DNA of 56,497 bases from Candidatus Thorarchaeota archaeon (GTDB taxonomy: Archaea; Asgardarchaeota; Thorarchaeia; Thorarchaeales; Thorarchaeaceae), in NCBI GenBank assembly GCA_048882965.1, contig JBHLRC010000003.1:1-56497 (forward strand), read 5' to 3'. Of this stretch, positions 683 to 18,641 are shown one piece after another. Each line of letters opens with the position of its first letter. The stretch's first letter is position 1. The notes beneath the pieces were generated by a model. That model ran no database searches. It was given only the letters and a program-made list of their open reading frames with translations, and had not been told where the DNA came from. A program made the translations under genes and the position numbers.

Positions 683-925
683 ATGGCTCGTAATTATCAA
701 CTTGAATCAGAAATCAGTGAATTAGAAAAGAGAGTTGAAATTCTTGAGTCGATATCCGCCCCTGCAACACATGATTTCACGAATGATACTCTCTCTTCAA
801 TTCTTAAACGAATGAATGCGGTGCAGTCACTTGTAGATCAGATAGAGATAGAAATTGACAAGCTGGAGATGAGAGTATCTGCCATTGAGCATGTTGATTT
901 TCGACTACGAACTAGCGGTCAGTAG
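683..925 (+). CDS. Small coiled-coil protein (80 aa)
   Basis: AGGTG SD before ATG; heptad pattern (LESEISELEKRVEILE; IEIEIDKLEMRVSAIE); co-oriented with upstream gene. Confidence 0.7.
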   Translation: MARNYQLESEISELEKRVEILESISAPATHDFTNDTLSSILKRMNAVQSLVDQIEIEIDKLEMRVSAIEHVDFRLRTSGQ

Positions 926-3563
926 TCGACTGAGTTAGGCTATCTATTAGGTCCAAGAAATATCCTGAAAACAGTGGTGAGGAAAATGCTTCCACAGGCA
1001 GGACTCTGGAATTCAATCCCTTCATTAGTTTCAAGTTGTTTTTCATTTTCTCATTTTTTCCCAATGTCAGAATCTCGAGTCTGCACCTGTCATGATCTGC
1101 GATTGCTCTAAGAAACGAGAGATGTTCTTCATCATAGTTGCCTACACTATTGCTGAGAACAATAGCTATCGTTGGTCTATCTGAACCGAAGTCTTCCAGA
1201 TATTCAGCAATTGCTCTATACACCCCAGCCATATTTTCATGTCCATCAACATCATCCAAAGTATCAATTACTGAGTAGATTAGCGAGATTAGAACTTCAT
1301 CTGATTGCAGGTCCTGAAAGAACTCTACATAGGGTTGAACCTCTTTACCCCTCTGGATCGAAAACTTCTCTGGAGTTTCGCCAAATGTCACAAGTGCTAG
1401 TTTCCCTTCTGTCTGATTGTATAGTAATGCGTTTACGATGGTAAGAACAGAGAGAGCGGCAATCTGTGAACGGGAGGAAGTTTTGTTTAATGCATCAAGA
1501 AATGGACCCAGCTCTGGTACTTTACTTTTTAAAGGACTCAGTTGCCTACGAGCTGCATGTAGCGTTTTCAACGAAACATCCTTCGTCTTCATTTTCATCC
1601 CTTTTGAAATGCATAATATGATGTTGAATTCATTGAAAGCTTGCTGTGGTCTAAAGTATGTTTTTTCATCAGTCAATCTACCAACCTTTCCTGAGAGAAG
1701 TTGAGGCTCCGAGGACTTGAAACATAAACTGACTTCCTTTCCATCATTTCCTACACTCAATTGAGAATCATGTCCAATTAGAATTCCATCGATAGTGCTT
1801 CGTATGTCTTTCTCGTGAAGATGAATAAATGAGGATAATTCTGCATTTTCGAGTTTTTGAGGTGCTCCGTATGCAAGTACAGTCTTCGTCATATCTACAA
1901 TCTCATCTTCATACTTGACAAGATTTACTACAGATGAACTGCTAAAGCCAAAGAGCATCGCATCTACTTCTGAAACTACTATAGACCTCTCTCCGCACCT
2001 AGAATGTCGCTGTGCTTGACCTGCAGCCCATCTTCCAGAGTTAGAATCAAGGGCAAGTATGAAATCTCCCGATGCAACTTCAAGAGCAGTCATATCATCA
2101 TCACACATGAAGAAAACTCCTCTGTCCGACTTTGCTACCTCCACACTGAAGTGAAGCGCAGATAGGATCTCATGCGGATTGGCAACTTGAAGACAATTTA
2201 GGAGTGCTTGAGCAAAACGGGTCAGATGAGCTGGGGAACCGTATATCGGTCCTTCCAATTTTGCATTTGCACGAACTAGGGTGTCTAGAAGAACACCATC
2301 TCGTTGAACAAGACTCTCTGAAAATGCCTTTTTCCATCCAGATATTATCACTGCACCATTTTTTTCCAGCAGTACTGAAAGACAAGTGGCTTTCACTGCT
2401 GTTGGACCTTTCAATGACAAAATCGCGCTATCGAGATGGACCTTTCCTCCATCGTTATCAACCATATAATCTAAAGACACAATTCCCTGAATCTTACGTG
2501 CTTCAAGAAGCTGAAGAATGCGTGCAAGTTCATTCATTGCAGCTTTTCCAAGGCTTTCCTCCGCCATTACAGACGAATTATTCTCTTCATACGATAAGAA
2601 TGGTGGTCGAGGTGGAAGAATAGATAGCATATTTCCACCAAGCACTCTCTGAATCTCTTCTGGTGAAGCAGCCAAATTCTTACTCAATAGATAGCTGAAA
2701 ACTTCAGACACACTATCTCCAAATTGTGTTTCAGGATACGAAGAGCCAAATATGACTCGCCTTGACCAATTGATGTCACTCTGATTCTTTCTCATATGCC
2801 GGATTAGCGAAGATAGAGATGAAATTGTTGCCCCCGCTGTCAGGACTTTACTGCCAGGAACATCAAGGAGCCGAGTGATTTCCTTACCCCACTCCTTGTG
2901 GTTCTTAACATTCAAGATCAGATTAGGGGTGATTAGTCCTGCTTGTTTGAGAAGGACAAGCCACTCAAGAAGCGAATCTAGTTCTGATGGTGGTCCCATC
3001 TCAACAAAGACAGGTTTCCCTGTTTTGATGTATTCAAGCAAATCAGTCCTATTAGCGCCTTTCAAAATAATGTTCAAATCTTCAGCTCTTAAGACGCATC
3101 CCCAACCAGGTTCGGTTCTCCGATCAAACCTCATATCTTGGAGATGATAGAGTCTAGGACCATATGGCGGAAGGGTTGCCCATCTAAATATGGACTCTGC
3201 ATTTGCTTTTTGTTGAAGCATAGGTAATGTTGTATCACCTAAATTGATGATTGGCTTTACAACCAGATAATCTGCAATCCAACTTTGTTGCACCGATGAT
3301 GATGAACCATGAACGAATTCCCCTAGCAGCTTTGGTTTTTTGAGATAGTCATAAACTCTCCTTGGTAAATACTTGAATGCTCCAGGATACTGCGATGAAA
3401 AATCGTGAAGTTGACTTTCAACCATGTTGTAGTATGCCCATACTCTTTCCGGATCAAATGTTCGAATATCAGTACCCGCCCGGACAATACCAAGATGAAT
3501 GGAACTATCGACGACAATAAAGCGGTGAATCTCATTTGCTTCAGTGTCCTCAACAACAATCAT
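912..3563 (-). CDS. Catalytically degenerate fusion protein: pseudo-amidohydrolase + Cdc48-N-like domain + degenerate vWA; paralogue of 3711..5219 plus 5289..6578
   Basis: Colinear matches to both neighbours, e.g. RVIFGSSY...SYLLS...IQRVLGGNMLS vs NILFGTDF...LYLLS...AQRVLAGNALS; FNIILCISKGMKMKTKDV vs FNAVLCIDTSGSMKTTDV; GKEVQPYVEF vs SGEVQPFVEC. Metal and MIDAS ligands are replaced. Confidence 0.85.
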   Translation of the reverse strand: MIVVEDTEANEIHRFIVVDSSIHLGIVRAGTDIRTFDPERVWAYYNMVESQLHDFSSQYPGAFKYLPRRVYDYLKKPKLLGEFVHGSSSSVQQSWIADYLVVKPIINLGDTTLPMLQQKANAESIFRWATLPPYGPRLYHLQDMRFDRRTEPGWGCVLRAEDLNIILKGANRTDLLEYIKTGKPVFVEMGPPSELDSLLEWLVLLKQAGLITPNLILNVKNHKEWGKEITRLLDVPGSKVLTAGATISSLSSLIRHMRKNQSDINWSRRVIFGSSYPETQFGDSVSEVFSYLLSKNLAASPEEIQRVLGGNMLSILPPRPPFLSYEENNSSVMAEESLGKAAMNELARILQLLEARKIQGIVSLDYMVDNDGGKVHLDSAILSLKGPTAVKATCLSVLLEKNGAVIISGWKKAFSESLVQRDGVLLDTLVRANAKLEGPIYGSPAHLTRFAQALLNCLQVANPHEILSALHFSVEVAKSDRGVFFMCDDDMTALEVASGDFILALDSNSGRWAAGQAQRHSRCGERSIVVSEVDAMLFGFSSSSVVNLVKYEDEIVDMTKTVLAYGAPQKLENAELSSFIHLHEKDIRSTIDGILIGHDSQLSVGNDGKEVSLCFKSSEPQLLSGKVGRLTDEKTYFRPQQAFNEFNIILCISKGMKMKTKDVSLKTLHAARRQLSPLKSKVPELGPFLDALNKTSSRSQIAALSVLTIVNALLYNQTEGKLALVTFGETPEKFSIQRGKEVQPYVEFFQDLQSDEVLISLIYSVIDTLDDVDGHENMAGVYRAIAEYLEDFGSDRPTIAIVLSNSVGNYDEEHLSFLRAIADHDRCRLEILTLGKNEKMKNNLKLMKGLNSRVLPVEAFSSPLFSGYFLDLIDSLTQSTTDR

Positions 3564-3710: not shown

Positions 3711-5219
3711 ATGCTCGTTATCCGAGCTCTTGAGAGTCAACCAAATAATGGAATAAGTAAAGGTGATGAATTCAGACTCTATATATTGGATGCTCACCAT
3801 CACATGGGTCGTGAGAAGAGTCATACGAATACACCTCTAGGAGCGTATGAATTTTATCAACAACTCTGGTTTGAGATTCAAAAGAAAACCAAAGTGCTAC
3901 TTGAAAATGACACTCTGTTATTTGAACCCGTACGTGTAGAAGCACCACCTTTAGCAAGAGCGATTATCAAGAATAAGAAGAGCTGGGCCAGACTTGACCA
4001 TGGTTGGCTTGTTGATAGAACCTTTGTCTTCCCATACACAGACGACTACTCCACTCCATCCTCAAAAGATGAACCTTCATTCAAAGTTTCAAATGACAAA
4101 ATTGCGTCATGGACAAGTAGAGCCCCTCATTCTACTAGATTAATCGGATTCGCACGTGTCAACCCTCTAGATGGATCCTACAAGGGAAACCTTCTTGCTG
4201 TAAAAGAACTTGAACGTGCCGTTTTGGCTCATGGTCTTAGAGGACTAAAACTACACCCTCTCGCTCAACTCTTTGTGGATGAGATTGATAGGAATGAACC
4301 AAGGGAAGTCGTGAAACGAGCTGGAGAGCTTGGTATCCCTGTAATTTTTGACACTCGAAATATGCGTACAGTTGTGAGAATAAAACGACTAGTAGATTCA
4401 ATGAGGAATGATCCTGATTGTGGAGCTGCATTGAAGGGTCTGAGGGTAATTCTTGCGCATTGTGGAATGTCTCCCGGCGACTCTCGACTTTATGAAGCAT
4501 TGAAGGACCCTCTGATATATGGTGAAACATCCACACTTCATGATAGGGATGTCCCTGTTCTTTTCGAGTCTGCATGTGACCGACTAAGTTCTACAAATCA
4601 GGAATGGTCTGAGAATATTCTCTTTGGAACTGATTTCAGTTTCCTATCAGTCCAAGCAATGGATATCATTTTGTATTTACTCTCAAGGGACTTTCCAGGT
4701 ACTTTAGCTGATGCCCAGCGTGTTCTTGCAGGAAATGCGCTATCACTTGTTCATATTCCCTTTAGAACTTCAAGAGGGTCATCCGGACCACCTAAGGAAT
4801 TAATCTGCAAAGATGAGTCATTAGAAACTCAACGCGGAGTTGAACGTTTTGTAATCAAGCTCATAACAAACGGCACATGGGATTTAGAGTCATTGGATTT
4901 TATGATTCCCCCAATTGGAACTTGGCCTGAACCAGAGAGTATTGCTAGTGGTGGGTCCAATGGAATACATATGGATTCGTACGTATTGGCATTGACATCA
5001 AAGGAAACTAATAGTGAACAACATTTGTGGATACGAAGACGACCTGATGATTATTTGAGTTGTACTCTTTTGCCGACACAAGGAATGATTAGATTGGAAA
5101 CCTTGGAAAATGCATCACAAAAGGTAGGGCAGGTTCTATTGAACTCTCTATCTGACCATTCAGAAACCTTTCAATCAGATGACAAGTTTACATCACGCGT
5201 TGCTGAGCTTTTTGCTTGA
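3711..5219 (+). CDS. Metal-dependent amidohydrolase (TIM barrel, Amidohydro_2-like) with ~150-aa C-terminal extension
   Basis: DAHHH, GLRGLKLHP, VILAHCG and ILFGTDF motifs; GGAGGA SD upstream. Confidence 0.9.
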   Translation: MLVIRALESQPNNGISKGDEFRLYILDAHHHMGREKSHTNTPLGAYEFYQQLWFEIQKKTKVLLENDTLLFEPVRVEAPPLARAIIKNKKSWARLDHGWLVDRTFVFPYTDDYSTPSSKDEPSFKVSNDKIASWTSRAPHSTRLIGFARVNPLDGSYKGNLLAVKELERAVLAHGLRGLKLHPLAQLFVDEIDRNEPREVVKRAGELGIPVIFDTRNMRTVVRIKRLVDSMRNDPDCGAALKGLRVILAHCGMSPGDSRLYEALKDPLIYGETSTLHDRDVPVLFESACDRLSSTNQEWSENILFGTDFSFLSVQAMDIILYLLSRDFPGTLADAQRVLAGNALSLVHIPFRTSRGSSGPPKELICKDESLETQRGVERFVIKLITNGTWDLESLDFMIPPIGTWPEPESIASGGSNGIHMDSYVLALTSKETNSEQHLWIRRRPDDYLSCTLLPTQGMIRLETLENASQKVGQVLLNSLSDHSETFQSDDKFTSRVAELFA

Positions 5220-5288: not shown

Positions 5289-6578
5289 ATCACCAAAAAA
5301 CTGACGCTGGAGATAATAGATGGCGGAGACCTACGAGGCTTCGCTAATGTGCATCCTAAAGTAGCTAAGAAGCTAGATGCTGACATAGGGTCTATTCTCA
5401 TTTTTGAAGATCCACAAAGCAGTTTTTGGGGCGCGGCTGAGATTAGAATGAACAATGAAACGGCGGAAGACAAGATTCTGATTGATACACTAGTTCTTGA
5501 AGCCTCACTACTTATGGAAGGAGATCAGGTCGAAGTCGCACTTTATGATGAAGACATGCTTGCTCTGGAATATGTTGAATTTGGTCTCAAACCCTTGTCT
5601 GAGGATGCTAACACCGAAGACCTAGTTACAAGAGCTGCTGAACGAGTAAAATCCTTGGAGAATATAATCGGTGGTCGTCTTGTTTACCCTGGTATGTCTT
5701 TCAATTGGCCTGAACTAGATGTAAAGGTGGAAATCATTAACACAAAACCAGAACTTGCAGGAAAGCGTTTTGCTAAATTAGCTTTTGAAGCGCTTCGTGC
5801 TCGAACTGGTTACCAGTTCAAGACAGTGGGTATTGCATCACCCTTCAATGCTGTTCTTTGCATTGACACCAGTGGGTCAATGAAGACCACAGATGTCCCA
5901 GTTCAGGATATCGCTCATGCTCGAGAAGGTCTAAAAGATTTGGCGGGTGATAGCCCGGAAGTGCATGCATTCCTGAATCGTTTTGAGGAGGGTAAGAATG
6001 TTAGTCGGGCTGAGGCAGCTGCGATGGCTGTCCTTCTATACCTAGCTGAAAAGGTCGGGCGAGGGTATGGTGAGAAGGTTGGAGTGATCACTTTCGAGAA
6101 AGAAGTTAGTGAGATGACCTTCTTAAATTCTGATTCTGGTGAAGTTCAACCCTTTGTTGAATGTACTGGAAGAGAGAAGGCGCTTGGGCTTCAGATTATC
6201 AGTACACATGTTGTAGACAAGGTGGAAGAAGGTGGTACACTAACTGACATGGGCACAGCTCTTACCAAAGCGCATGAAATCATGGAGGAGTTTGGAGACC
6301 CTGATAAACCGACGATGTTGATTATGCTGACAGATGGAATGACAACTTCCGGACCACCCCCACTTAAAGTATTGAAGGAACGATTCACAGATCGCAGTAG
6401 ACTTGTTATCTATTGCATTGGTTTGGGTGAACGTAGCGAAATTGATGAGGAACTGATGCTAGCAATCGCTCAATATGGTAATGGTAGTTATCGTCATGTC
6501 GATAATATGAGGGACTTACTAGAATGGTATGGTAAATTAGCTGGTGAGTTTGCAGTTGTTATCCGAGGCTCTGAGTGA
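5289..6578 (+). CDS. Cdc48/p97 N-domain-like + vWA (intact MIDAS) protein, no ATPase domain
   Basis: N-terminus KKLTLEIIDGGDLRGFANVHPKVAKKLDADIGSILIF resembles the Cdc48 double-psi barrel. vWA MIDAS DTSGS...TDMG...LTDG. The ORF track starts at GTG 5349, but the frame and similarity extend to about 5289 behind GAGGAGG (5274-5280), so the start is uncertain. Confidence 0.8.
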   Translation: MTKKLTLEIIDGGDLRGFANVHPKVAKKLDADIGSILIFEDPQSSFWGAAEIRMNNETAEDKILIDTLVLEASLLMEGDQVEVALYDEDMLALEYVEFGLKPLSEDANTEDLVTRAAERVKSLENIIGGRLVYPGMSFNWPELDVKVEIINTKPELAGKRFAKLAFEALRARTGYQFKTVGIASPFNAVLCIDTSGSMKTTDVPVQDIAHAREGLKDLAGDSPEVHAFLNRFEEGKNVSRAEAAAMAVLLYLAEKVGRGYGEKVGVITFEKEVSEMTFLNSDSGEVQPFVECTGREKALGLQIISTHVVDKVEEGGTLTDMGTALTKAHEIMEEFGDPDKPTMLIMLTDGMTTSGPPPLKVLKERFTDRSRLVIYCIGLGERSEIDEELMLAIAQYGNGSYRHVDNMRDLLEWYGKLAGEFAVVIRGSE

Positions 6579-6583
6579 AAAAT

Positions 6584-7732
6584 TCAATCGCGCGGCTCAA
6601 GAGCTTGTGTCAATCCCTTGAGTGTTTCCATATCCATCTCTTGAATCTGGTCCTCTGGGATTCCTTCAAGCATCACATCTGGTATATTAATCAGGAGTTC
6701 TGCTTTCTCCTGACCGAACTTGTCTACCAATTCTTTCATTCGCGGTTCAGTATCTATCTCCTCAGGTTCTGCTTCAGCCTTTTCTGTCTCAGGTTCACCC
6801 TCCGAAGTGGACGAGAGAAGTGCTTCAAGTTCCTCCACACTAAGAGTGGATAAGGTTTCATCACCAACCTCTTTCCTCACTTCTTCAGGAAGCTTCTCGA
6901 TTAACTCATCTTGTGCGGTTGGTTTCTTTTTCTTTTTGACTTTCTTTACCTTACGCACTTTAACGGCCTTTTTCTTCTTAGGCTTCTCAGGTACTGCCAC
7001 TTTGAGTTTCTGCACAAGTTCCCTAGCAGATGCTGGAGTCAAGCGTCTAACATCTTCAGGTGGAAGTGTTTCACGCAATTCTTCCGGCAGCTCACTGAGA
7101 ATAGCATCAACCTCTTCCGAAACTCCTTCAACCTTTGGAGCGCTAATACTCGCAGCTGCATCTTCCGATAGTAAAATTGGAGCACCTTCTAGTTCTTCTA
7201 CAAGAGATGTCACATCAATTTCAATGTCAAAATTTTGGCTTCGCCAATTATTATAACGGTCAATTGCAGATGCCTTCATTTTGATGGCTGAAAGGAATTT
7301 ATTGATATCTTCATCTGCCATCTCGGGGAAATCATCAATTAATTTCTCAATATTCTCTTGTGAAATTCGTGCCCAGATAGGTCCGTTTAGGAGTTTGGAA
7401 AGCCCTGCAGCACAATGCGAACGGACCCAAGTGTTATCATCTTGAAGTCCTTTGAGCAAATCGGGGACTGTTCTTGGCTGATGATAAAATGCAAGTGCTT
7501 GAGCTGCAGCGATTCGAACATCTGGAACCTCATCAGACATCGCTTTGACAACATCTGTGACAATTGTTGGATCCGCTAGGTCTACAGCTGCAATTAATGC
7601 TCTCTCTCTAACGATATCAGAGGGGTCTGTAAACGCGCTGATCAGTGCTTTGCGCTCTGATTTTTGATCTCTTGCAAGGCGCCCAACCTCATCTGTTTCG
7701 AATTCCAACAAAAGACTCCTTGTCTTTGCCAA
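6584..7732 (-). CDS. HEAT/PBS-lyase repeat protein with Lys-rich linker and acidic helical C-terminus
   Basis: Repeats DPSDIVRERAL, DEVPDVRIAAAQAL, DDNTWVRSHCAAGL; KKKKAVKVRKVKKVKKKKK stretch; TTG start after GGAGG. Confidence 0.85.
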   Translation of the reverse strand: MAKTRSLLLEFETDEVGRLARDQKSERKALISAFTDPSDIVRERALIAAVDLADPTIVTDVVKAMSDEVPDVRIAAAQALAFYHQPRTVPDLLKGLQDDNTWVRSHCAAGLSKLLNGPIWARISQENIEKLIDDFPEMADEDINKFLSAIKMKASAIDRYNNWRSQNFDIEIDVTSLVEELEGAPILLSEDAAASISAPKVEGVSEEVDAILSELPEELRETLPPEDVRRLTPASARELVQKLKVAVPEKPKKKKAVKVRKVKKVKKKKKPTAQDELIEKLPEEVRKEVGDETLSTLSVEELEALLSSTSEGEPETEKAEAEPEEIDTEPRMKELVDKFGQEKAELLINIPDVMLEGIPEDQIQEMDMETLKGLTQALEPRD

Positions 7733-7917: not shown

Positions 7918-8697
7918 GTGGAACATAGGGCGCCAAAGTTGTCAGAAATCAAATTAACCGCATGGCTCAGAGTACTTCTCTTCATGTTCGCGATGTACCT
8001 ACTTGCACTATCAGCTCCATTTGTGGATATTCTGATCTTCGTATTCATGTTCATTATTACCTGGGCTTTTGTGAAGTGGGAAGGGGGTGAATCAATAGTA
8101 GAACTAGGGCTTGAACTCGACAATCGAGTAAGTCGCAACATCAGCATAGGTGCAATCTCAGCAGCTCTGGCGGCGGCCATAGTTACAGCAATCGCATTCT
8201 TCTTTGGTGGCCAACTTCGTCCGGTAAATGAAATAACCGGTGACCTGATAGTCAACTTGGTTCTCAATGCCGCATTGTTTTCATTTTTTGAGGAGCTAAC
8301 GCACCGTGGTTATATTCTGACAAGGGTGGAAAGTCTAGCAGGCCGCAAAATTGCTATTGTATTCAGTTCTCTATTTTTTTCATTGCTTCACTTCAGTTGG
8401 TGGGGTCCAGCTGGTTTCAACACACTGTTGATTGTCCTTTTTACATTCAATATATTCCTTGGTGGTGTGGTTCTTTCATTTAGCTATTTTTGGTCTGGAA
8501 AGAGTTTGTGGACTCCAATCTCGTTTCACTTCATGTGGAACGTACTTGCTTACACAGCTTTTCCAGACTTTCCTCAAGTTTCTGTGATTCAACCAGAAAT
8601 CTTTCAGATCGAATGGGGAATTACAACAGTTATTGGATTCTTATTTGCACTTGCAATTCTTTGGAGCTTTCTAGCACTAGCGAAAAAGAAAATGTGA
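7918..8697 (+). CDS. CPBP/Abi (CAAX protease-like) intramembrane metalloprotease
   Basis: EELTHRGY, FSLLH and HFMWN motifs; multiple TM helices. Confidence 0.9.
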   Translation: MEHRAPKLSEIKLTAWLRVLLFMFAMYLLALSAPFVDILIFVFMFIITWAFVKWEGGESIVELGLELDNRVSRNISIGAISAALAAAIVTAIAFFFGGQLRPVNEITGDLIVNLVLNAALFSFFEELTHRGYILTRVESLAGRKIAIVFSSLFFSLLHFSWWGPAGFNTLLIVLFTFNIFLGGVVLSFSYFWSGKSLWTPISFHFMWNVLAYTAFPDFPQVSVIQPEIFQIEWGITTVIGFLFALAILWSFLALAKKKM

Positions 8698-8740: not shown

Positions 8741-9433
8741 CTATTGGTCTAAACTTGGTATATCATCAGGTCTTCTGACATGCATTGTGATTCCAGTTAT
8801 GTGGTCAATCACAACTTGTTCGCCTGCTTTGATTGGGGGTCCGTCAGTTCTCGCCCACCAAATCTCTGCACCAGTCTTAACCTTACCCTTTGGATTAAGA
8901 TCTGTTACTGCATGAATATCTGCATATTTGAACTGAGAGTAAGTTGGCCACTTGTCGTAGTTCCTCAGGAATGCAAAATATAGAATCATCAGGCAAAATA
9001 TCGAACCTGCCATGAAGTAGACTGTTAAGCGTCTAGTTTCATCAATAAACAGTGAGAGTACTATTGCTGCACCATAAATTGGGAATAGCTTCAACGAAAC
9101 TTTGGCATCAATAAAACCACCCTCAACGAAACTACTACCTCCTGTAAACATAGTGAACATTAGATACATCACTGCGAAGATGACAATAAGCATCCAGTCT
9201 TGGAAGGTAAACCCTTGAAGCCACACTTGAAATACGAATAGAATTAATACAAGTGGGACAGTGACCTGCGCCATTGCCTTGCCTGTTGCAGGTTCGAGTG
9301 TCAACACAAGAAGCGTGAGGATAACACCCAGTAGAATTAGACCAACAAATGGATCGATTAAAAGATATGGCATTATCATACTCAATGCTGTGAACATGAG
9401 CATGACAACCAAGATTTTTATCCATGCATCCAT
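8741..9433 (-). CDS. NfeD-family membrane protein (C-terminal OB fold)
   Basis: Several TMs followed by GKVKTGAEIWWART...GEQVVIDHITGITMHV; directly downstream of the SPFH gene. Confidence 0.85.
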   Translation of the reverse strand: MDAWIKILVVMLMFTALSMIMPYLLIDPFVGLILLGVILTLLVLTLEPATGKAMAQVTVPLVLILFVFQVWLQGFTFQDWMLIVIFAVMYLMFTMFTGGSSFVEGGFIDAKVSLKLFPIYGAAIVLSLFIDETRRLTVYFMAGSIFCLMILYFAFLRNYDKWPTYSQFKYADIHAVTDLNPKGKVKTGAEIWWARTDGPPIKAGEQVVIDHITGITMHVRRPDDIPSLDQ

Positions 9434-9464
9434 TCTCTTTCCTCCTACTCAGAGTCCTATTCGA

Positions 9465-10328
9465 CTACTCTTCTTTTCCTTTGTTTTTCGGTACTCTTAA
9501 TCCACCCGTTCCTGCCGTAAGCGCGACAGATGCTCCTGTTGCCAATCCAACTTCTGGAAGGCTTGCAGGAATCATAATGATCAGGTTGGCGTTCTTTGAT
9601 ATCTCCTGCATGATGTTCCATTGCCGAAGTGCAAAACCAACATTTGACTCCTCATAGATACGAGCTGCTTTCAGCATGTTCTCTGAAGCTTCAAGTTCAG
9701 CTGTAGCTAATGTTACACGAGCTCTCCGTTCTCTCTCTGCTTGAGCCTCTCGACTCATAGCATCTTGAAGTGCTGAGGGAATCACGACATCACGAATTTC
9801 GACACTGGTTACTTTTACACCCCAGTGTTCGGTTTTCTCGTCAATAAGTTCCTGTAGATGTCCTGCAATCTGATCTCTCTCTGATAGAAGCTGGTCTAGT
9901 GTGACCTTTCCTGTTGTTTCCCTTAGTGTAGTCTGAGCAGCGAGCTCTACAGCAACTGTGTATCGTTCTACACTAAGAATTGCCTTCTCGACATCAATGA
10001 CTCTGAAGTACATAACAGCGTCTACGACTACCGGGACGTTGTCCTTTGTTAATGAACGTTCAGTCTTGAAGGCATAGGTAAGTAGCCTAAGTGAAACCTT
10101 CATAGCAACCTTATCAAGGATGGGTGTTACCCAGATGACTCCGGGTCCTCTTATGTGTTTGAATTTACCCAATCTGAGGATTGCAACACGTTCCCATTCC
10201 TTTAGGACCTTTATTCCACTCGCGACAAACATCAGAATGAAAAACAGGATCACTATCAGGAACATCATCGTTAAATATGGATCCAATATCTGCAATTCTT
10301 TCTTGCTCCTTCCTTCCGTACACACCAT
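9465..10328 (-). CDS. SPFH/stomatin (band 7) protein; true start probably TTG near 10295
   Basis: EWERVAILRLG, TKDNVPVVVDAV, AQTTLR, AQAERERRA motifs. Confidence 0.95.
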   Translation of the reverse strand: MVCTEGRSKKELQILDPYLTMMFLIVILFFILMFVASGIKVLKEWERVAILRLGKFKHIRGPGVIWVTPILDKVAMKVSLRLLTYAFKTERSLTKDNVPVVVDAVMYFRVIDVEKAILSVERYTVAVELAAQTTLRETTGKVTLDQLLSERDQIAGHLQELIDEKTEHWGVKVTSVEIRDVVIPSALQDAMSREAQAERERRARVTLATAELEASENMLKAARIYEESNVGFALRQWNIMQEISKNANLIIMIPASLPEVGLATGASVALTAGTGGLRVPKNKGKEE

Positions 10329-11399: not shown

Positions 11400-12749
11400 T
11401 TGAAGATGTTGGGAATGGAATTTACTAAAAAAACGGAGGCATTATGGCCTTACCTTCTCTTTTTGCCCTCGGAGTCCTCGAGCCGTGATGAGTTCATTCG
11501 TTCAGTTCTTGGATCACGGTTGGCTCGTGGAGTGCTCACAAGTTTTGATGAATCGGGCCGTGTACTTCAAAGAGATTTGGTGGAACATCTCACTCACTCT
11601 AACAAAAGCATTCTATCATACCTTAAGACATTGAAGCAATTCGGACTGATAAAGACAGGATCCACTATTCACAACGGAAAGCGTGTAGTTTATCATGAAC
11701 TGACCAGAAGTGGCTGGGGCTTCGCGAGATTCTACTTTGAAGGTCTTCCTTCAGACGTTGAAGAATTGACAGCCTTTCTTCTTGAGGACTATTTGGTTCG
11801 ATTGGCTACGCTATATCGAGAAAAGGGCTTACCAGAATCGACATTATTTGAGATATTCGCACGAACCAGAGCCAAAGCCATTCTTGAGGGTTCCAAGAAA
11901 TACGAAAGTCCTGATTATGTGATTTTTGGCGCCTCTGCTTATTTCACTCATGTTGATTGTGAGAAGCTGCCACCGCTCGGGGGACTCACGAGTTGTAGTT
12001 CTCCACAACGCCACTTTGGAGGTTCTACAGTTGAACTAGCTTTGGCATTATCCAGCGAAGGGCTGGAAACCTCGCTTATCTCATCCGTGGGAAATGATAT
12101 GGACGGGTGGAATATTATTGCTCATCTCATACAAGGTAATGTTGACGTCCGGCATATTGTCGTTGAGGATAATAAGAAAACTAACGAGTCAATAATAATA
12201 AATGAACCAAAGGGACCACGAACTCTTGTTGGAGTCAGCCCCTCTACGTCTCTCTCTATCACATCGCCTTCTCAGGTGCCTTGGAAGGTTGTAGAGAATG
12301 CAAAAGCCATCTATATTGGTGAGTTGTTTATAGAGGTAGCGGCTTCAGTAGCTGCAAATGCTAGGACAAATGGGATTCCTGTTTTCTATCGTTGTTCTAT
12401 CCCATATTGGGAACTAGGACTTCAAAGACTAAAACCCGTTCTCTCACAAGTTGATTATCTATTGATATCAAATCAAGCATGGAAATATATCAAGAAATCT
12501 GTCAAACCAAGACCGCTCGTAACAATACGGAAGATGACAGATGCAACAATGATTATTCGGGATTATCCACATAGGTATAAAATAATGGCAAAGGATAGCG
12601 ACGCCGAATTTGTTGAGTGTGGGGCCACAACCAACGATATTACTCAATGGACTGTAGCTGGTTTGATGCAGGAAATAGTGGGGGGATCGGGCATACTTGA
12701 GGCACTGGAGTCTGCTATCAAGTATGAGGAAATTCGATTAGCTGCTTGA
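11400..12749 (+). CDS. Winged-helix domain fused to a degenerate PfkB/ribokinase domain (probable regulator)
   Basis: wHTH QRDLVEHLTHSNKSILSYLKTLKQFGLI; PfkB-like FGGS...LISSVGNDMDG; the C-terminal DTxGAGD signature is absent. Confidence 0.75.
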   Translation: MKMLGMEFTKKTEALWPYLLFLPSESSSRDEFIRSVLGSRLARGVLTSFDESGRVLQRDLVEHLTHSNKSILSYLKTLKQFGLIKTGSTIHNGKRVVYHELTRSGWGFARFYFEGLPSDVEELTAFLLEDYLVRLATLYREKGLPESTLFEIFARTRAKAILEGSKKYESPDYVIFGASAYFTHVDCEKLPPLGGLTSCSSPQRHFGGSTVELALALSSEGLETSLISSVGNDMDGWNIIAHLIQGNVDVRHIVVEDNKKTNESIIINEPKGPRTLVGVSPSTSLSITSPSQVPWKVVENAKAIYIGELFIEVAASVAANARTNGIPVFYRCSIPYWELGLQRLKPVLSQVDYLLISNQAWKYIKKSVKPRPLVTIRKMTDATMIIRDYPHRYKIMAKDSDAEFVECGATTNDITQWTVAGLMQEIVGGSGILEALESAIKYEEIRLAA

Positions 12750-13679
12750 TGAAGCTGCTATCCAGAAAAAGAGGCCTCCAAGTATCCAGACGAAAAGTCC
12801 AGCACCTAGAATTATCCCGAGGGTGGCACCCATACCCGATGAGCCAAGATTGACATGCATGTTAGTGAATTTCTTGAAACCGCCAACGTATTTTGTTTCA
12901 TAACTGCAGTGGAACTCCTTGTCTGTAATCGCACCACAGATTTCGCAGACGAATCTATTCTGAAGTACAGCTCCAAAAAGACTGTCAAGATTGCATCCGA
13001 TGAATGCAGTTAGGACTGACAATGGCACTAGAATAATTAGCTGCTCATTGGTAGTTATTGCTGGGACCAAACCTGGTGCAACAAAAGCTATGACGAGTGC
13101 AAGGGTTCCAATGAATAAGCCAGCAAATAAGGCGGCACCTTCACCAAGAAGTGAAACTGCTCCGATAGTTCCTCGTGGGACTTTGCGCCGCAAATTGGTG
13201 ATAAGCCGGGGTTTACTTTTGCTGAATACACCAATCTCGCTTGCCAACGTATCCGCACTTGTCGTAGCAACAGCTCCTATGTACCCACCAAACATAAGAA
13301 ATGGCCAACCAGCAGCTGCGAGACTAGGTGCTATTTCAGGGCCAGTCATATACATCCCTATTGAGAAGATCATAGGGATGATTCCACTTCCAAAGACATT
13401 AGACCATGAACGCTTTCCTTTTCCTTCTTGAGCGAGATTCTGCTTAGCCTTCTCTTTGTACTTCATCTTAGTTGCTAGACCTGCACTTAGGAAAAAGAAC
13501 AGAATGATGACAAATGATACAACTCCACCCGTATACCAAATAGTGAAACCTACAACAAATGCGCTGATTAGACCTGAGATGTCGACAAAATTCAGCTTGT
13601 ACGCTAAAGCACCTACTATTGTCATAACCAATAATCCGGATACAGCCGGATTGGCCAGAATATCCAGCATTCTCTTCAC
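12738..13679 (-). CDS. DUF92/TMEM19-family membrane protein
   Basis: RSWSNVFGSG, SADTLASEIG, GAVSLLGE, DSLFGAVLQ motifs; CEICG zinc ribbon. Confidence 0.9.
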   Translation of the reverse strand: MKRMLDILANPAVSGLLVMTIVGALAYKLNFVDISGLISAFVVGFTIWYTGGVVSFVIILFFFLSAGLATKMKYKEKAKQNLAQEGKGKRSWSNVFGSGIIPMIFSIGMYMTGPEIAPSLAAAGWPFLMFGGYIGAVATTSADTLASEIGVFSKSKPRLITNLRRKVPRGTIGAVSLLGEGAALFAGLFIGTLALVIAFVAPGLVPAITTNEQLIILVPLSVLTAFIGCNLDSLFGAVLQNRFVCEICGAITDKEFHCSYETKYVGGFKKFTNMHVNLGSSGMGATLGIILGAGLFVWILGGLFFWIAASSSS

Positions 13680-14019
13680 ATCCAGGTTTTGTAATTGTTC
13701 TCAAACATTAGTCATTTCAGTCGAAAGCATCATTGAATGTTCTATGAGCATATATTATATACTACTTGTTGGGTCCGGTTACCAACCTGCGGCCCAAATT
13801 TTGCATTTATAGCTTTGCCTTAGGAACCCCTAAGTCCAACGATTAATTAGCCAATATAACAATTTTCATCTGAATATCGGCAAAAGTCGAATCATAATTA
13901 CACGAAGAATGAATCGGCAAAGGCCGTAATGTTTGTATCTTCCAGAAGAAGCAATCATAAGTTTCTATTAGTGAAACAGAGACTTATGATTATTTTATGG
14001 CTATAGAACTCACTCAGTT

Positions 14020-17000
14020 CTAGTACACTGTAAATTGCCGCTTTACCATCTCAAGCGCTCTTGCAGGAAGAGGTCTGCCAGAATCCAGAACAATAGCATC
14101 AACATAATATCCCGTAACAACATCGATAGGCGGAGTCACCCAATTAATTCTGACAATGTTTGTTTTTGCTTCAGGGTCTGGTAATGGTACTTCAAATTCT
14201 TTGATAACATCTCGTCTTGACATGATCCGAACGCATAGGGTCAAGTCACCAATTTTGTCACCAATGCTTTCGATTTTGGTGATGATTTCTATTGTTGATA
14301 GTCTTGCCACAAGTCCGGGTATCTCATCTCCTGTTTCATTTCTGATTGAGAATTCTATCTTGAAAAGTGGTGACTCTATTGCCTTAATCTTGAACCTTTC
14401 TTTCTTCTCATAAGACTTCTTTCCACACCTTAGTGTTGCTCGTAGATGAGCTGTGCTCATCTCTGCACTCAAAGGGACTCTGACTGGTATTGGAAACAAT
14501 CTCTCTTCTTTTGGCTGAAGGCTAATTTCCTGCGATAGAAGGTCTCGGTTTCCACCAACTGATTCTAATTCAACAGTGAGAATACAGCTACTGTTTTCCT
14601 CTAAATTGCTAGTGAGTTGCACAGTTGGCTGTATCAATTCATCTGGAGCCGCAAAATTAGGTAGTCCGATAAATTCAATCTGTGCGATATCCATGGCGGG
14701 CCCTCCTAACAAGCTTATCTCTGTTGATCTTTGATCCACTTCAACTCCTGCATAGCTTAGTGTAGCTACTAGTTTGATTGATTGATGATCTGAATCAACT
14801 CGTGGCGCTGGAATAGTCACGGGCCCAAAAGCTACCGAGAGATTCTTACTTTGTTTTACAGGCTGACTAAGCACATGGTGTTCATCCTCATCGGGATATA
14901 CAAAAGACATATTGAGAATTGCAGGGTCACCCGTTTCAGTGTTCCTTCTTATTCTCAACCATCCAGAAATTTTACCTCCTATATGTGAGTGTTGAGGAAC
15001 TCTGAGTGAATCAATATTGACCAGAGTGGTAACCTGTTCGATTCTTAATCTATCTGACTCAGATGATGCAATTTCCTTTCCACCATCTTTCAAAATTGCT
15101 TTCAATATTCCTACCCTATCAGCTGGACTCTCCACTGATATAGCTGGTATCTTCCAGTGAAAGCTTACTATACCTTGAGAAATCTCTTCCTTAAGGAATT
15201 CCTCTATGAGATGTGTTCTCCCAGAATCACTCTTGAATTCCAGTACAACCCTTGAGTTTGGGCTAACTTTCTTTCCAAGATTCTTGACCACTATCTCCCC
15301 TGAAACCAGATCTCCAAGTTTATAGCTACTCTTCAGATCTGCGTTGATTATCACCTGAGGCCCTCTCTTGACAAAACCAACATAGAACGGTTTTGATACT
15401 GCTTCAGAAATTTCTGTACCATCTTGATTTAGAAGTTGTAATTGAAGTATGCATCTTTCTACTCCGCTCGCAGCATCTGATGGGACAAGGATGGGAAGGA
15501 ATTTTGTCTGGTCGATTTTCGTAGCTTCACTACTCTCAACCTGAATTGTGTCTCCAGAGGAAACAAGAACTTTCTCAATTCCAGGGGCGATAACACTGAT
15601 TTGACAATTAACCTTGGTCTGTGTTGGATAGTTGGTTTCTATTTGTCCATTGAAGAGGACAGGAGTTTTCCCATCTGCAAATTGAGTTGTCGTTCCCGGT
15701 TGTATTGATGCTTTCATCCAGTACATATTGATAGTACTGGTTAAGCTTATGACTCTCCCCACGAATCCAACTTCTGTAATAATATTGTAGGCTGTGATAT
15801 TTTTCCTTGTTTCAAAGGACACTTCCAATACATGAATTTCTCCATTCTGGATAGTAGGAATAGTCAGTACCTTGTTTTCTACAGGATTCCGCTCAGAATC
15901 TTCTATTGTGTATGAGATTGAGATATCCTCAAGTTGTCGACCTGTGGAATTCTTCACTAATATATTAAAATGAACATTTTGTCCAGCAAACACTCTCTCA
16001 ACATCAGTGACAATTTCTGGTTCGAGTCCTTTCCACCAGCATAACCATGTGGGTAAATGTGGTGTTCCTTCTATTGGATCGTACAACCAATTGGTACTAC
16101 ATTCTCTAGTAACCTCTGCGAGCCTCTTCATCAACACGACCATGTTGTTGTCAGATTTTGCGTATACATCTAGTTGAAAGTCTGCTCCTGTTGTCCTTGA
16201 CTCAACAAACTCGCTACCAAATACCGACACAAGTATTGCTTGCATGAATGGATTCTCGATTATGTTTAACTCTTCAAGCTCTTCTCTAATTAGGTACAAC
16301 ATAGAAACAACAGCGTCTCCAAGAAAACGGTTCTTTTTGTTTTCATCGACAAGTCCTTCATCGGTTATCTGAAAGTTGTAGATTCGGAGATAATCTGAGC
16401 CCTTTCCTCCTGCACCTGGTCTAAAAGGTCCCCACAAACCTGCTGATAGTGCTGACTCCCTATTTGCTGCCAGCGTCTTGGGACTTACATCTGGAATGGT
16501 TTCTCCTCTCTCAAGCATTCTTTTTGCCTTTAGTGCTAATGCTTGAAGTAAAAGCGCAAGACCCATTCTTCGTGGAATTGAAAGTTGTGTATCGAACACT
16601 CGAATCTCAATTGTTCCATAATCTGTGAATGGATACATATCCACCATTCGCGAATAGCTACGATTGACATGGCGCGCAAAAGCTTCTTTGTCAGTCCCAC
16701 GCAGGTATGGTATCAACTCAAACTCATTATTTGGTCCCATCTGTGTGGTGTTCCTAAATAATCGAATGGATCTCTTACATCTTGGTGCTCGCAATCTCCC
16801 CTCATCAGAGATTGAAACCTCGTCACTTGGCTTTTTATTTTCAAACGGTGAGTTGACTGAGAGTGCAATTAGATGAGGTAGGAAATTCCGTATCATGTTG
16901 TAGACTGCTAACTTTGTTTTTTCATCAGTATTTGGACTTAGTATGTGATGGTGTTCTCCAAAGGATAAGTTTCTCAGATACTCTTGGGTGGGATTAAGCC

Positions 17001-17454
17001 CTGTCGAGATCAGGATAGCTTTGGAATCCACTGGAAGGGAATCCTGAGAGATCGCAATTAATGTCTGAATCCACCACGCGAGTTCTTCAAGTGTTGTACA
17101 AGGTGGAGTAGCGATTTCAAGTATCCATGTAAGGCTTGTTACATTTGGATCGTGTCCAAGTAGTGTATACTCCTTATGTACTCCATCTGGATTCTCATAC
17201 TCTACAGTAATCCTTGAACCTCTCTCTCCTTCCTCTGTCTGTGCTGACTGTTTGTATTTTTGCCTCACAGATTCTACTGATGAAGATCGAATCTTCTTAT
17301 CAAGCAGACTCTTTGCATTTGACACGATTCGATCAAACACCTCAAGTATGTCTTCTCCACGAATCCAGGTACCATCTTTTCGGATAACTTGGAGCTCCAC
17401 CTCTATCCCATGCGGGAATGGTAGCTGCATTTCCGAGTTTTCCGTTGAACTCAT
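14020..17454 (-). CDS. GCS2/YbdK-type carboxylate-amine ligase domain fused to ~650 aa of predicted Ig-like beta-sandwich domains
   Basis: HGIEVELQVI, LEIATPPC, GEHHHI, ALSVNSPF and YGTIEIRVFDTQ motifs. The C-terminal half shows alternating beta-strand patterns. Start ATG 17454 follows AGGTG. Confidence 0.85.
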   Translation of the reverse strand: MSSTENSEMQLPFPHGIEVELQVIRKDGTWIRGEDILEVFDRIVSNAKSLLDKKIRSSSVESVRQKYKQSAQTEEGERGSRITVEYENPDGVHKEYTLLGHDPNVTSLTWILEIATPPCTTLEELAWWIQTLIAISQDSLPVDSKAILISTGLNPTQEYLRNLSFGEHHHILSPNTDEKTKLAVYNMIRNFLPHLIALSVNSPFENKKPSDEVSISDEGRLRAPRCKRSIRLFRNTTQMGPNNEFELIPYLRGTDKEAFARHVNRSYSRMVDMYPFTDYGTIEIRVFDTQLSIPRRMGLALLLQALALKAKRMLERGETIPDVSPKTLAANRESALSAGLWGPFRPGAGGKGSDYLRIYNFQITDEGLVDENKKNRFLGDAVVSMLYLIREELEELNIIENPFMQAILVSVFGSEFVESRTTGADFQLDVYAKSDNNMVVLMKRLAEVTRECSTNWLYDPIEGTPHLPTWLCWWKGLEPEIVTDVERVFAGQNVHFNILVKNSTGRQLEDISISYTIEDSERNPVENKVLTIPTIQNGEIHVLEVSFETRKNITAYNIITEVGFVGRVISLTSTINMYWMKASIQPGTTTQFADGKTPVLFNGQIETNYPTQTKVNCQISVIAPGIEKVLVSSGDTIQVESSEATKIDQTKFLPILVPSDAASGVERCILQLQLLNQDGTEISEAVSKPFYVGFVKRGPQVIINADLKSSYKLGDLVSGEIVVKNLGKKVSPNSRVVLEFKSDSGRTHLIEEFLKEEISQGIVSFHWKIPAISVESPADRVGILKAILKDGGKEIASSESDRLRIEQVTTLVNIDSLRVPQHSHIGGKISGWLRIRRNTETGDPAILNMSFVYPDEDEHHVLSQPVKQSKNLSVAFGPVTIPAPRVDSDHQSIKLVATLSYAGVEVDQRSTEISLLGGPAMDIAQIEFIGLPNFAAPDELIQPTVQLTSNLEENSSCILTVELESVGGNRDLLSQEISLQPKEERLFPIPVRVPLSAEMSTAHLRATLRCGKKSYEKKERFKIKAIESPLFKIEFSIRNETGDEIPGLVARLSTIEIITKIESIGDKIGDLTLCVRIMSRRDVIKEFEVPLPDPEAKTNIVRINWVTPPIDVVTGYYVDAIVLDSGRPLPARALEMVKRQFTVY

Positions 17455-17464
17455 ATTCTCACAC

Positions 17465-18124
17465 CTAGAAAGAAGCAAGCATACTCAGGATTTGAATAAC
17501 CAGATCCTTATTCTCTACCACTTGACGAGAGAGAGTCAGTTCAGACACCAACAGAGTCTTTCTATCCTCAAATGACTTCGTAATCTCGTATGTTAAAGGA
17601 CCACCACCAAATTCACCTTCATCTACTACTACCTTTAGACCTATTCTCTCCAACTCTGCTTCCAATTTCTTTGTTCTAATTGATTCACCCAACTTGTATC
17701 TACTTCCTCTAATGACAATTCTCTCTTTCTCAAGCGGTGGAGCGAGTTGCGACCATCTTAAATTAATCACATACTCTAATTGTCTCTTCTGGTCCTCAGC
17801 ATGAATCATGTTTACTATACTTTCTATTGTCAAGTTGGACTCACTTCGATCTCCTGCTTTGATCAGAGATGGAATATTTCTCCCGCGCCCCCTCTCTTGT
17901 AGTATTCTCTGCAAAGGATCGCCTTGAATAAGACCTGAGAGAACGCATACTAGACCTTTTGATTCTCCTTGAACGAATTCCCCACTTGAGGAGAAATCAC
18001 TTACTTTCATCTCACGTTCAATGGACTGGAGTGCAGTATTCAAATTCAGAAGTACGTCTAGTAAGTTATGTAGAACATTCTCTGTGTGTTCAAGTTCTTT
18101 TAGGAGATTTCTGGACTTACTCAT
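17465..18124 (-). CDS. Hypothetical protein, possibly degenerate N-formylglutamate amidohydrolase (Zn-carboxypeptidase fold)
   Basis: C-terminal EFGGGPLTYEI...LLVSELTLSRQV resembles the FGase F-x-GG-x-IT...IQIEIS motif; ends 10 nt before the ligase start. Confidence 0.45.
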   Translation of the reverse strand: MSKSRNLLKELEHTENVLHNLLDVLLNLNTALQSIEREMKVSDFSSSGEFVQGESKGLVCVLSGLIQGDPLQRILQERGRGRNIPSLIKAGDRSESNLTIESIVNMIHAEDQKRQLEYVINLRWSQLAPPLEKERIVIRGSRYKLGESIRTKKLEAELERIGLKVVVDEGEFGGGPLTYEITKSFEDRKTLLVSELTLSRQVVENKDLVIQILSMLASF

Positions 18125-18203
18125 AGGAAAGGACCACTCTCTATTTCCCAAACGAGAGGGAATGCAAATGAATCGTTATTATCTTTGTTAGTTCTACAAT
18201 AAG

Positions 18204-18641
18204 CTAAACATCTGCTATGAGTTCAATCAATTCTGCAATCTTCTCTCGTAGCTCTTTCAACCTATACCAAGTAGATTCGCGACCACTCTGTTCCATGAGT
18301 TTCTGGATAATGATGTTGTAATCCATCCCTGCTAGGTCTCCCAGAATTACCATGGCACGTTCCGATTTGAAATGAGACTCATTGACTCGTCCATCATTGT
18401 ATCTCTTTACGAGTGGTAACAATGCCTTCTCTGCGGAATCAACATTGATTAGAGCTTGCCTGTAATGCTCCTTAGGATCCTTGATAGCATAGCCGCCTAT
18501 TAGTGGTGTCATTCCAACACCTACTGATCCTTTGTTTATTTCATCGAGTGAGTCTTGAACTGCTTCGAAATACTCGTCACCATCTTCCAGACATTTTCTG
18601 ATAGCTCGGAGCACTCTTGGTCTATCCTCACTCTTCGCCAA
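18204..18641 (-). CDS. Hypothetical helical protein (145 aa)
   Basis: GAGGTG SD, TTG start, clean ORF co-oriented with the ligase cluster. Confidence 0.7.
   Translation of the reverse strand: MAKSEDRPRVLRAIRKCLEDGDEYFEAVQDSLDEINKGSVGVGMTPLIGGYAIKDPKEHYRQALINVDSAEKALLPLVKRYNDGRVNESHFKSERAMVILGDLAGMDYNIIIQKLMEQSGRESTWYRLKELREKIAELIELIADV

Follow-up and report, generated by a model that had tools for sequence, protein, structure and literature searches.

The stretch of DNA analysed here (the window) comprises 56,497 nt of contig JBHLRC010000003.1 from a Candidatus Thorarchaeota archaeon, and all coordinates are window positions. The listing of open reading frames (ORFs) contains three minus-strand ORFs at 18641..18204 (145 amino acids, aa), 18151..17465 (228 aa) and 17478..14020 (1152 aa). 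A first-pass annotation, made from the letters alone, had described these as a helical gene, a degenerate partner resembling formylglutamate amidohydrolase (FGase) and a giant GCS2-type carboxylate-amine ligase with an immunoglobulin (Ig)-like tail. We find that the 219-aa partner gene and the 1152-aa ligase gene represent the Thorarchaeota version of a set of four genes that occurs across Asgard archaea, and this conclusion is much firmer than what can be said about mechanism. The first-pass annotation had not spotted the other two members of this conserved set, an Amidohydro_2 hydrolase and a VWA docking protein, although both are encoded in the window. In the window the set falls into two halves, partner and ligase at 14.0-18.1 kb and hydrolase and VWA protein at 3.7-6.6 kb, and a fused hydrolase/VWA paralogue adjoins the latter half (Table 1).

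Table 1. Members of the four-gene set, their predicted domains and two associated genes in the window.
Feature	Position	Strand	Description
Ligase gene	14020..17478	-	longest ORF 1152 aa from TTG 17478; probable ATG 17454, giving 1144 aa
YbdK/GCS2-type carboxylate-amine ligase domain	16051..17430	-	residues 17-476; assigned from PF04107, TIGR02050, predicted fold and invariant residues
Six beta-sandwich domains (Ig-, macroglobulin (MG)- or CARDB-like)	14023..16026	-	residues 485-1152; predicted from the AlphaFold2 model
Partner gene	17465..18124	-	219 aa; ORF extends to 18151; predicted long N-terminal helix and degenerate FGase/peptidase-fold domain
Helical 145-aa ORF	18204..18641	-	family-specific neighbour, outside the system
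Amidohydro_2 hydrolase gene	3711..5219	+	502 aa; PF04909 match and conserved ligands
VWA docking protein gene	5349..6578	+	409 aa; metal ion-dependent adhesion site (MIDAS) intact
Fused hydrolase/VWA paralogue	912..3563	-	883 aa; divergently transcribed; catalytic and MIDAS residues gone

An ATG at 17454 (M9 of the longest ORF) is the most likely start codon of the ligase, because its called relatives are 1144-1145 aa long. The partner stop codon, TAG, is followed by GGTGTGAGAAT and then by this ATG, which lies 10 nt past the partner stop and is preceded by GGTG. For the partner, a start at 18124 and a product of 219 aa are most likely, because the window's own database protein (P0293, 100% identity) has this length.

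In loci with short forms of the ligase, the gene immediately downstream encodes an Amidohydro_2-like protein of about 515 aa, whose sole good match in the window's genome is the product of 3711-5219 (30% identity over 264 aa, E 8e-38). The reverse search from 3711-5219 returned exactly the ligase-adjacent genes in five of five genomes, as reciprocal best matches. Locus maps were drawn from BLAST and hidden Markov model (HMM) searches over 27 loci of 14 sampled families; the hydrolase was searched for in the window's family (f1) and ten further genomes, and the VWA protein in ten genomes. The hydrolase gene is adjacent to the ligase in 11 of the 14 families and the VWA gene lies inside the locus in 10; in f1, ligase and hydrolase share a contig at a distance of 6-11 kb. 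VWA, partner, ligase and hydrolase stand in this order on the same strand in f17, f18 and f19, while hydrolase and VWA converge on ligase and partner in f3, f15 and f16. The order is hydrolase, ligase, VWA in f11, hydrolase, ligase in f13 (with the VWA gene at a distance of 7 kb) and partner, ligase, hydrolase in f20, f21 and f22; in paralogues of f15, f16 and f23 the VWA gene adjoins the ligase. The genes also occur fused, VWA with ligase in protein P0177 and hydrolase with VWA in the 883-aa paralogue.

The linkage of partner and ligase, for which the first-pass annotation had proposed a check of operon conservation, holds far beyond Thorarchaeota. With a single-protein query the partner was detected in f2 and in 65 of 85 f1 genomes, and each time its gene immediately preceded that of the ligase. 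From a database of 974 ORFs, an iterative partner HMM recruited the ligase-upstream genes of f16, f15 and f17 (E 1e-11, 2e-8 and 7e-6), and those of f18 and f19 matched it at E 2e-6 and 1e-7 (Z=1000). The upstream proteins of f20, f21, f22 and f23 are tied to the partner set by BLAST chains (E 1e-5 to 1e-46); those of f22 measure 590-658 aa and, like those of f20, f21 and f23, have the partner's globular domain at their C-terminus. When the partner groups were aligned to each other with hhalign, the probability was 72.7% (E 3e-5) over columns 63-218, the entire globular domain. In 11 of the 14 sampled Asgard families, a gene with this domain immediately precedes that of the ligase. A 214-aa gene upstream of the f3 ligase reached only HMM E 0.015 in a 12-sequence database and was not counted. 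The f16 partner P0337 carries the source name Candidatus Freyarchaeum.

The four genes are also lost together. In the ten f1 genomes without the ligase, the partner was absent from all ten and the hydrolase from eight, the two exceptions being 83% and 66% complete. A hydrolase query at E<=0.001 gave no match in one of four ligase-less genomes (91-99% complete) and in the other three matched other amidohydrolases of about 300 aa, at E 1e-4 to 1e-7. The VWA protein was absent from all five high-quality ligase-less genomes (91-99% complete), and the same query matched five of five control genomes. All four genes are jointly missing from five high-quality Thorarchaeota genomes, and the surrounding synteny is kept in two of these. 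In genomes G321 and G323 two ATP-binding cassette (ABC) genes, the 145-aa gene and a DUF92 gene follow one another, Band7 and NfeD homologues are present, and HEAT-repeat and 883-aa genes adjoin each other; precisely the partner-ligase and hydrolase-VWA pairs are missing, and the flanking order is otherwise unchanged.

The five motifs quoted for the ligase in the first-pass annotation are all present in the translation: GIEVE at residues 24-28, EIATP at 121-125, GEHHHI at 174-179, NSPF at 209-212 and EIRVFD at 291-296. In an alignment of 67 sequences they fall on invariant or near-invariant columns (E28, E121, H176, H178, N209, S210, P211, E291, R293 and D296); they include the putative metal- and nucleotide-site motifs (ExE, H, ExR), in which the roles of single residues are presumptive. 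Matches to known families were distant. The Pfam model GCS2 (PF04107) scored 24.8 bits against a cut-off of 21, over residues 169-215 only, the YbdK model TIGR02050 stayed below threshold (65.5 bits vs 176.4), and the NCBIfam equivalog and subfamily models for GshA and YbdK gave 24-49 bits against cut-offs of 332-437. A sequence search of the PDB matched YbdK alone (E ~1e-3), and the alignment pairs GIEVE, GEHHH, LPHLIALSVNSPF and GTIEIRVFD with YbdK motifs. The AlphaFold2 model of the ligase protein has a mean predicted local distance difference test (pLDDT) score of 83.7, with the ligase domain at about residues 17-462. With VIA-align, residues 19-458 were closest to YbdK 1tt4 (Z 33.6, 3.0 A, 330 aligned residues), followed by plant glutamate-cysteine ligase (GCL) 2gwc (26.8), Dop and GshF (both 20.8), PafA (19.8), GshA (17-19) and glutamine synthetases (GS; 11-16).

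Judged by its motifs, invariant columns and modelled fold, the ligase core is intact and of GCS2/YbdK type, as the first-pass annotation had it, and it apparently works as an ATP-dependent amide-bond enzyme. Kinship with the fold group of YbdK, PafA and Dop was borne out as to the common superfold, but PafA and Dop (4bjr, 9cku) are more distant than YbdK; the predicted domain is a very divergent branch of YbdK/GCS2 and not a relative of PafA/Dop. A quick maximum-likelihood tree was built from 26 ligase domains of Asgard loci, 8 of odd architecture, 16 intermediate proteins of about 350 aa and 6 canonical YbdK proteins. The Asgard and odd-architecture domains formed a single clade (Shimodaira-Hasegawa-like approximate likelihood ratio test, SH-aLRT, 100), separate from the canonical and intermediate groups. 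With YbdK/GCS2 (PF04107, TIGR02050; 1tt4, 1r8g, plant GCL 2gwc) the Asgard ligase has in common the fold and the motifs GIExE, GxHxH, NSPF/ASPY and ExRxxD, and the ATP-dependent acyl-phosphate chemistry is presumably shared. It differs by its Ig-like tail of 670 aa or other large carriers and by the conserved partner, hydrolase and VWA protein; the canonical YbdK members seen here measure 311-399 aa. In two Thorarchaeota genomes (G358:C41:2426-6009 and G334:C3:772577-775781) the ligase is read as two abutting or overlapping frames, for which a frameshift, pseudogene formation or an error in assembly could be responsible.

A search of 400 genomes from the phylum detected the ligase domain in 262, including 63 of the 90 high-quality ones; in 8 genomes the match lay only between E 1e-6 and 0.001, and these weak matches may be ordinary GCS2 enzymes. 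In f1 it is present in 75 of 85 genomes, full length wherever the contig permits. Database searches gave 152 homologues, mostly of 1136-1153 aa, of which the best 120 were 51-95% identical and mostly matched over the full length. Their source names agree with the first-pass annotation in placing the host among the Asgard archaea. Outside f1 the match was limited to residues ~17-476 at 36-43% identity, in open frames of about 470-600 or 977-1410 aa. Genomes of f15 and f16 (e.g., G115 and G117) encode three ligase paralogues each. Those with a partner have about 1190 aa and those without a detected partner 1230-1410 aa, and each copy inspected has an adjacent VWA gene. An exhaustive search of 1.84 billion representative proteins returned 171 at E<=0.001, with a wide range of architectures: the ligase domain stands at the C-terminus of proteins of 2232-3804 aa (P0139, P0143, P0145, P0194), behind extensions of 250 aa, in one chain with VWA (P0177) or beside a double zinc ribbon (P0180). 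The high content of E, K, Q, R and L in the giant proteins suggests that their long regions are helical or coiled-coil. Of six sequences inspected, two begin with a hydrophobic segment (the giant P0143 and P0186, which has 733 aa), and P0145 has a helix-hairpin-helix match.

The tail of the ligase was predicted by the AlphaFold2 model to consist of domains at about residues 485-594, 598-702, 708-813, 820-925, 932-1031 and 1039-1152. The first-pass annotation had been right about an array of beta-sandwiches and about the lack of a transmembrane segment (the highest 19-residue Kyte-Doolittle mean in the ligase protein was 1.24), but had counted about five domains where the model has six. The fold comparison that it had proposed for the tail brought matches to arrestin, CARDB, MG and Wzt domains. 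As a whole, the tail matched the MG arrays of alpha-2-macroglobulin and complement proteins with Foldseek (E ~1e-20) at low TM-scores, as expected because such arrays are flexible. By VIA-align, domain 1 resembled the arrestin N-lobe, CARDB and MG domains (Z 10-13) and domain 6 the carbohydrate-binding domain of Wzt (Z 11). On the predicted model these are generic sandwich similarities. Among 59 close relatives, the tail domains had 39-58% mean identity each, compared with 76% for the ligase domain; the tail evolves faster than the ligase domain. According to a tail HMM, the tail is present in all long forms of f1, f2, f3, f15 and f16. The same HMM recruited no separately encoded Ig tail in short-form loci, and the short-form partner was rejected as such a tail, its hhalign probability against the tail being 7%.

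A plain gamma-glutamylcysteine ligase (GshA/YbdK) for low-molecular-weight thiols, with a dispensable tail, is what the database source names (glutamate-cysteine ligase) would suggest. The core motifs match YbdK, and the window's genome (3.5 Mb, 94% complete) has no second GCS2 match. The scores of 24-65 bits against equivalog cut-offs of 332-437, a tail conserved over five families, and the linkage to and joint loss with partner, hydrolase and VWA protein nevertheless make this very improbable. Moreover, the ligase is missing from high-quality Thorarchaeota genomes of the genera g7, g8 and g15 (91-99% complete) and from G321 of g6 (98%), and its absence from such near-complete genomes disfavours a housekeeping role in thiol synthesis. 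A search of the genome with the glutathione synthetase model PF02955 gave one ATP-grasp gene (50.6 bits), which says nothing on glutathione, since in a control the model also matches in organisms that are not known to have a glutathione synthetase.

The partner matched no Pfam or NCBIfam family at E<=1. Its AlphaFold2 model (pLDDT 86.4) has an N-terminal helix of 46 residues followed by an alpha/beta domain. With VIA-align the top match was FGase 2q7s (Z 11.2 over 168 residues, 3.5 A), nearly tied, within one Z unit, with pyroglutamyl peptidase I (10.9 and 10.8) and an M42 peptidase (10.7); the FGase-like Atu2144 reached Z 10.1 and a poly-gamma-glutamate (PGA) hydrolase Z 8.9. Foldseek matches comprised PbaB, YndL, purine nucleoside phosphorylases, PghP and FGase at E 1e-5 to 1e-4. 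In the ESM Atlas, feature neighbours of the partner included clusters with FGase (15% of members, score 0.88) and PGA hydrolase (0.86), which serve as leads only. In an alignment of 28 sequences D168, G173 and G174 alone were invariant, the Glu of 'ELTLS' varied to Q, D, N or G, and no conserved His or Glu of a metal or catalytic site was seen. The partner is thus predicted to have an FGase/peptidase-type fold and to be catalytically degenerate, with several peptidase families in a tie. The label 'degenerate FGase-like' given by the first-pass annotation was therefore apt as to the fold type and the lost catalytic residues, with FGase being one of several near-tied matches. The suggestion that it might act as an eraser fails, because it has no conserved His or Glu ligands and only the three invariant residues. 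FGase, PGA hydrolase and pyroglutamyl peptidase (PF05013, PF05908; 2q7s, 2odf, 3a9l, 3rnz) superpose on the partner with Z 8.9-11.2 over 143-168 residues (Foldseek E 2e-5 to 2e-4); the partner differs in having neither a family match nor catalytic residues, and in its extra 46-residue N-terminal helix. FGase genes beside GCS2-type amidoligases were reportedly noted by Iyer et al. in 2009 (Mol Biosyst). We also considered a proteasome chaperone and rejected it: PbaB was the top Foldseek match (E 8.5e-6, TM-score 0.47-0.49), yet its Z by VIA-align was 7.7, and the aligned C-termini had no conserved HbYX-like motif.

The hydrolase matched PF04909 with 48.6 bits (cut-off 26.4), and H29, H31, K180, H182, H250 and D308 were conserved in 14 of 14 orthologues; it looks like an active, binuclear-type Amidohydro_2 enzyme. 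The VWA protein matched VWA_2 with 40 bits (cut-off 27), and its MIDAS, DxSxS...T...D, is intact, with IDTSGSM, LTDMG and LTDG conserved in the alignment of orthologues. Among 13 VWA orthologues, 3 match CDC48_N (PF02359) above the cut-off and 7 reach E<=0.014. The window protein has no such match at E<=1; it aligns from residue 1 with the orthologue at locus L033, which bears a CDC48_N match. No solved structure matched the hydrolase or the VWA protein by sequence better than E 0.0018. The fused paralogue has an amidohydrolase-like part at residues 8-358 and a VWA-like part at 487-852. In it ISKGMKM replaces DxSxS, and H29, H182, H250 and D308 are replaced or gapped in four of four fused copies, with H31 kept in two of the four including that of the window. 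By these residues it is a dead copy of hydrolase and VWA protein. It is kept in two of five ligase-less genomes.

The third gene of the trio did not keep its place. The 145-aa ORF is present in 70 of 85 f1 genomes; outside f1, matches in the phylum amounted to one fragment on another contig in f2 and three at chance level (E 0.003-0.008). It is kept in five of the ten ligase-less f1 genomes (G321, G323, G387, G388, G389), and no match was found in eight ligase-bearing genomes of the genus g12. It matched nothing in Pfam, NCBIfam or PADLOC. This phyletic pattern rules it out as a tag or subunit, and contrary to its earlier listing as a third linked gene, it is a neighbour and no component of the system.

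On its upstream side the locus is flanked by two Opp/Dpp-type ABC ATPases. The spacer between the partner and the 145-aa ORF is 79 nt long and A/T-rich, and the GC content is uniform over the region. Downstream of the ligase follow a gap of 340 nt and the DUF92 membrane protein (12738-13679, minus strand; 218.9 bits), which has a Cys-x2-Cys...His-Cys stretch near its C-terminus; in f1 and f2 its gene keeps synteny with that of the ligase, yet ligase-less genomes retain it as well. A PfkB-family kinase-like gene (11400-12749, plus strand; 449 aa with an N-terminal extension of about 180 aa) lies between the DUF92 gene and that of a 268-aa membrane protein, and is gone from this position in Thorarchaeota loci L046, L066 and L067. 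Between the two halves of the set lie a HEAT-repeat gene (6584-7732), an Rce1-like CAAX protease gene (7918-8697) and an NfeD/Band7-SPFH pair (8741-10328). The pair is retained in both ligase-less relatives inspected, G321 and G323; G321 also keeps a full-length HEAT gene and the Rce1-like gene, and G323 has a shorter HEAT-like gene and no Rce1-like match. As they are retained in ligase-less relatives, these genes look unrelated to the ligase set. In two families a protein of about 800 aa is encoded directly upstream of partner and ligase (L032:1462-3879 in G311 of f2 and L033:8560-10944 in G001 of f3). It has a middle part that is helix-rich by eye, a CarboxypepD_reg-like sandwich and a C-terminal EAP30/Vps36 domain (E 3e-19). 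The two copies are homologous (E 3e-22), and a homologue of 792 aa is encoded on a different contig of the window's genome (G000:C12:24700-26997, L052).

The variability of the set could point to conflict or defence, with a VWA-based sensor and an enzyme pair that modifies an invader or host target. Judged by full-length matches inside one family, the partner evolves fast (20-74% identity, ligase 48-83%), f15 and f16 have their three paralogues per genome, the set is lost in a patchy manner inside one family, and domain architectures are highly variable. We nevertheless regard a defence role as unlikely: none of six proteins had a PADLOC match at E<=0.01, the locus position is stable and syntenic over the whole family, no mobile-element genes flank the set among the annotated genes of the window, and most genomes have a single copy.

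Taking these components together, we read the set as a scaffolded write-and-erase system for an amide bond on a large substrate, most likely a protein, and give this reading a probability of about one half. The ligase would turn a carboxylate, most plausibly the gamma-carboxyl of glutamate, or else an acidic side chain or a C-terminus, into an acyl-phosphate with ATP and then join it to an amine. The arm of six Ig-like domains would hold the large substrate together with the VWA/MIDAS adaptor and the dead-enzyme partner, and the amidohydrolase would remove or trim the same amide. The protein or peptide gamma-glutamyl tagging proposed in the first-pass annotation is at this stage a conjecture. 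A large substrate, and most likely a protein, is suggested because of the docking modules, namely the Ig arm, the VWA protein, the CDC48_N-like head and the coiled-coil carriers. Further hints at a macromolecular target are that the tail is kept over five families, that the ligase sits on carriers of 2232-3804 aa, some with a hydrophobic N-terminus, and that zinc ribbons occur beside it and CDC48_N in VWA orthologues. PafA and Dop, which share the GS-like superfold with the Asgard ligase, provide a precedent for a fold that ligates a carboxylate to protein lysines and has a hydrolytic counterpart; here, in difference to these, the candidate eraser is a TIM-barrel amidohydrolase and not a ligase paralogue, and no Pup-like gene was seen at the locus.

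Several observations weigh against this reading. The short ligase forms of 469-606 aa lack the Ig tail, and the tail is therefore dispensable for the core chemistry. Adjacency within f1 is non-specific, since the entire f1 neighbourhood is syntenic throughout; in f2 the hydrolase-VWA pair lies on another contig than the ligase, and in f22 the VWA gene is on a different contig. No partner was found in f11, in f13 or with the second paralogues of f15, f16 and f23, and in the f1 genera g3, g6 and g14 the ligase occurs without the partner and has the 145-aa gene directly upstream instead. The joint losses fall in at least three genera, and related genomes are not independent samples. No Pup-like tag gene was seen: the 340-nt gap at 13680-14019 contains no ORF of at least 31 aa, with no systematic search made for small ORFs at other loci. 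The closest solved relatives, YbdK and plant GCL, are small-molecule enzymes, and small-molecule metabolism has examples of GS-fold ligases paired with TIM-barrel amidohydrolases, as an excerpt of PMC6478659 describes for FluG of A. nidulans and SCO6961/SCO6962 of S. coelicolor.

A scaffolded small-molecule pathway is accordingly a possible alternative, if in our view one with clearly less than an even chance. The ligase would form a gamma-glutamyl-like amide of a small amine or peptide, the amidohydrolase would make or recycle the substrate (a division of labour proposed for FluG-type amidohydrolases paired with a gamma-glutamyl ligase), and the Ig, VWA and dead-enzyme parts would merely assemble or localise the enzymes. 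Besides the best structural matches (YbdK, Z 33.6; plant GCL, Z 26.8) and the short forms that do without the Ig tail, the classic HxH...K...H...D ligands of the hydrolase fit such a pathway. In FluG and its bacterial counterparts, according to the same excerpt (PMC6478659), an amidohydrolase of the HxH...K...H...H...D type is likewise coupled or fused to an amide ligase of the GS superfold; the FluG ligase is, however, GS type I-like and not GCS2/YbdK-like, and there is no VWA protein, dead FGase-fold partner or Ig tail. Six Ig-like domains, MIDAS/VWA adaptors, CDC48_N-like heads and coiled-coil carriers of 2-3.8 kaa are rare on metabolic enzymes, the family stays far below all NCBIfam cut-offs for GCS2/YbdK (65.5 vs 176.4), and in the quick tree it forms its own clade with an SH-aLRT of 100.

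A bolder version of the write-and-erase reading can be put forward only tentatively, as we find it rather unlikely. The set may constitute a reversible, ATP-driven protein modification of Asgard archaea that is unrelated to ubiquitin, with a YbdK-type writer, whose Ig arm would hold the targets together with a Cdc48N-VWA adaptor and the dead hydrolase as a 'reader', and an amidohydrolase eraser. The mark might be an isopeptide or a glutamyl-type amide, and giant and membrane-anchored forms might place the activity at particular cell structures. In the open-access literature we found no description of the ligase family or of the four-gene set (subscription journals and supplements lay outside the search); what is given in part of an Asgard review merely counts GshA-family InterPro matches (PMC7278568).

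The set is widespread in the phylum. Its enzyme folds make and break amide bonds in other systems, and fusions to protein-docking modules recur. Since no known archaea are more closely related to eukaryotes than the Asgard group, lineage-specific Asgard protein machinery bears on the origin of eukaryotic cell biology. If the set does modify proteins, it would represent a second prokaryotic tagging chemistry on a GS-like fold, after pupylation; if its role is metabolic, the four genes would define an unknown Asgard-specific compound. Either way, they provide a concrete target for expression and mass spectrometry.

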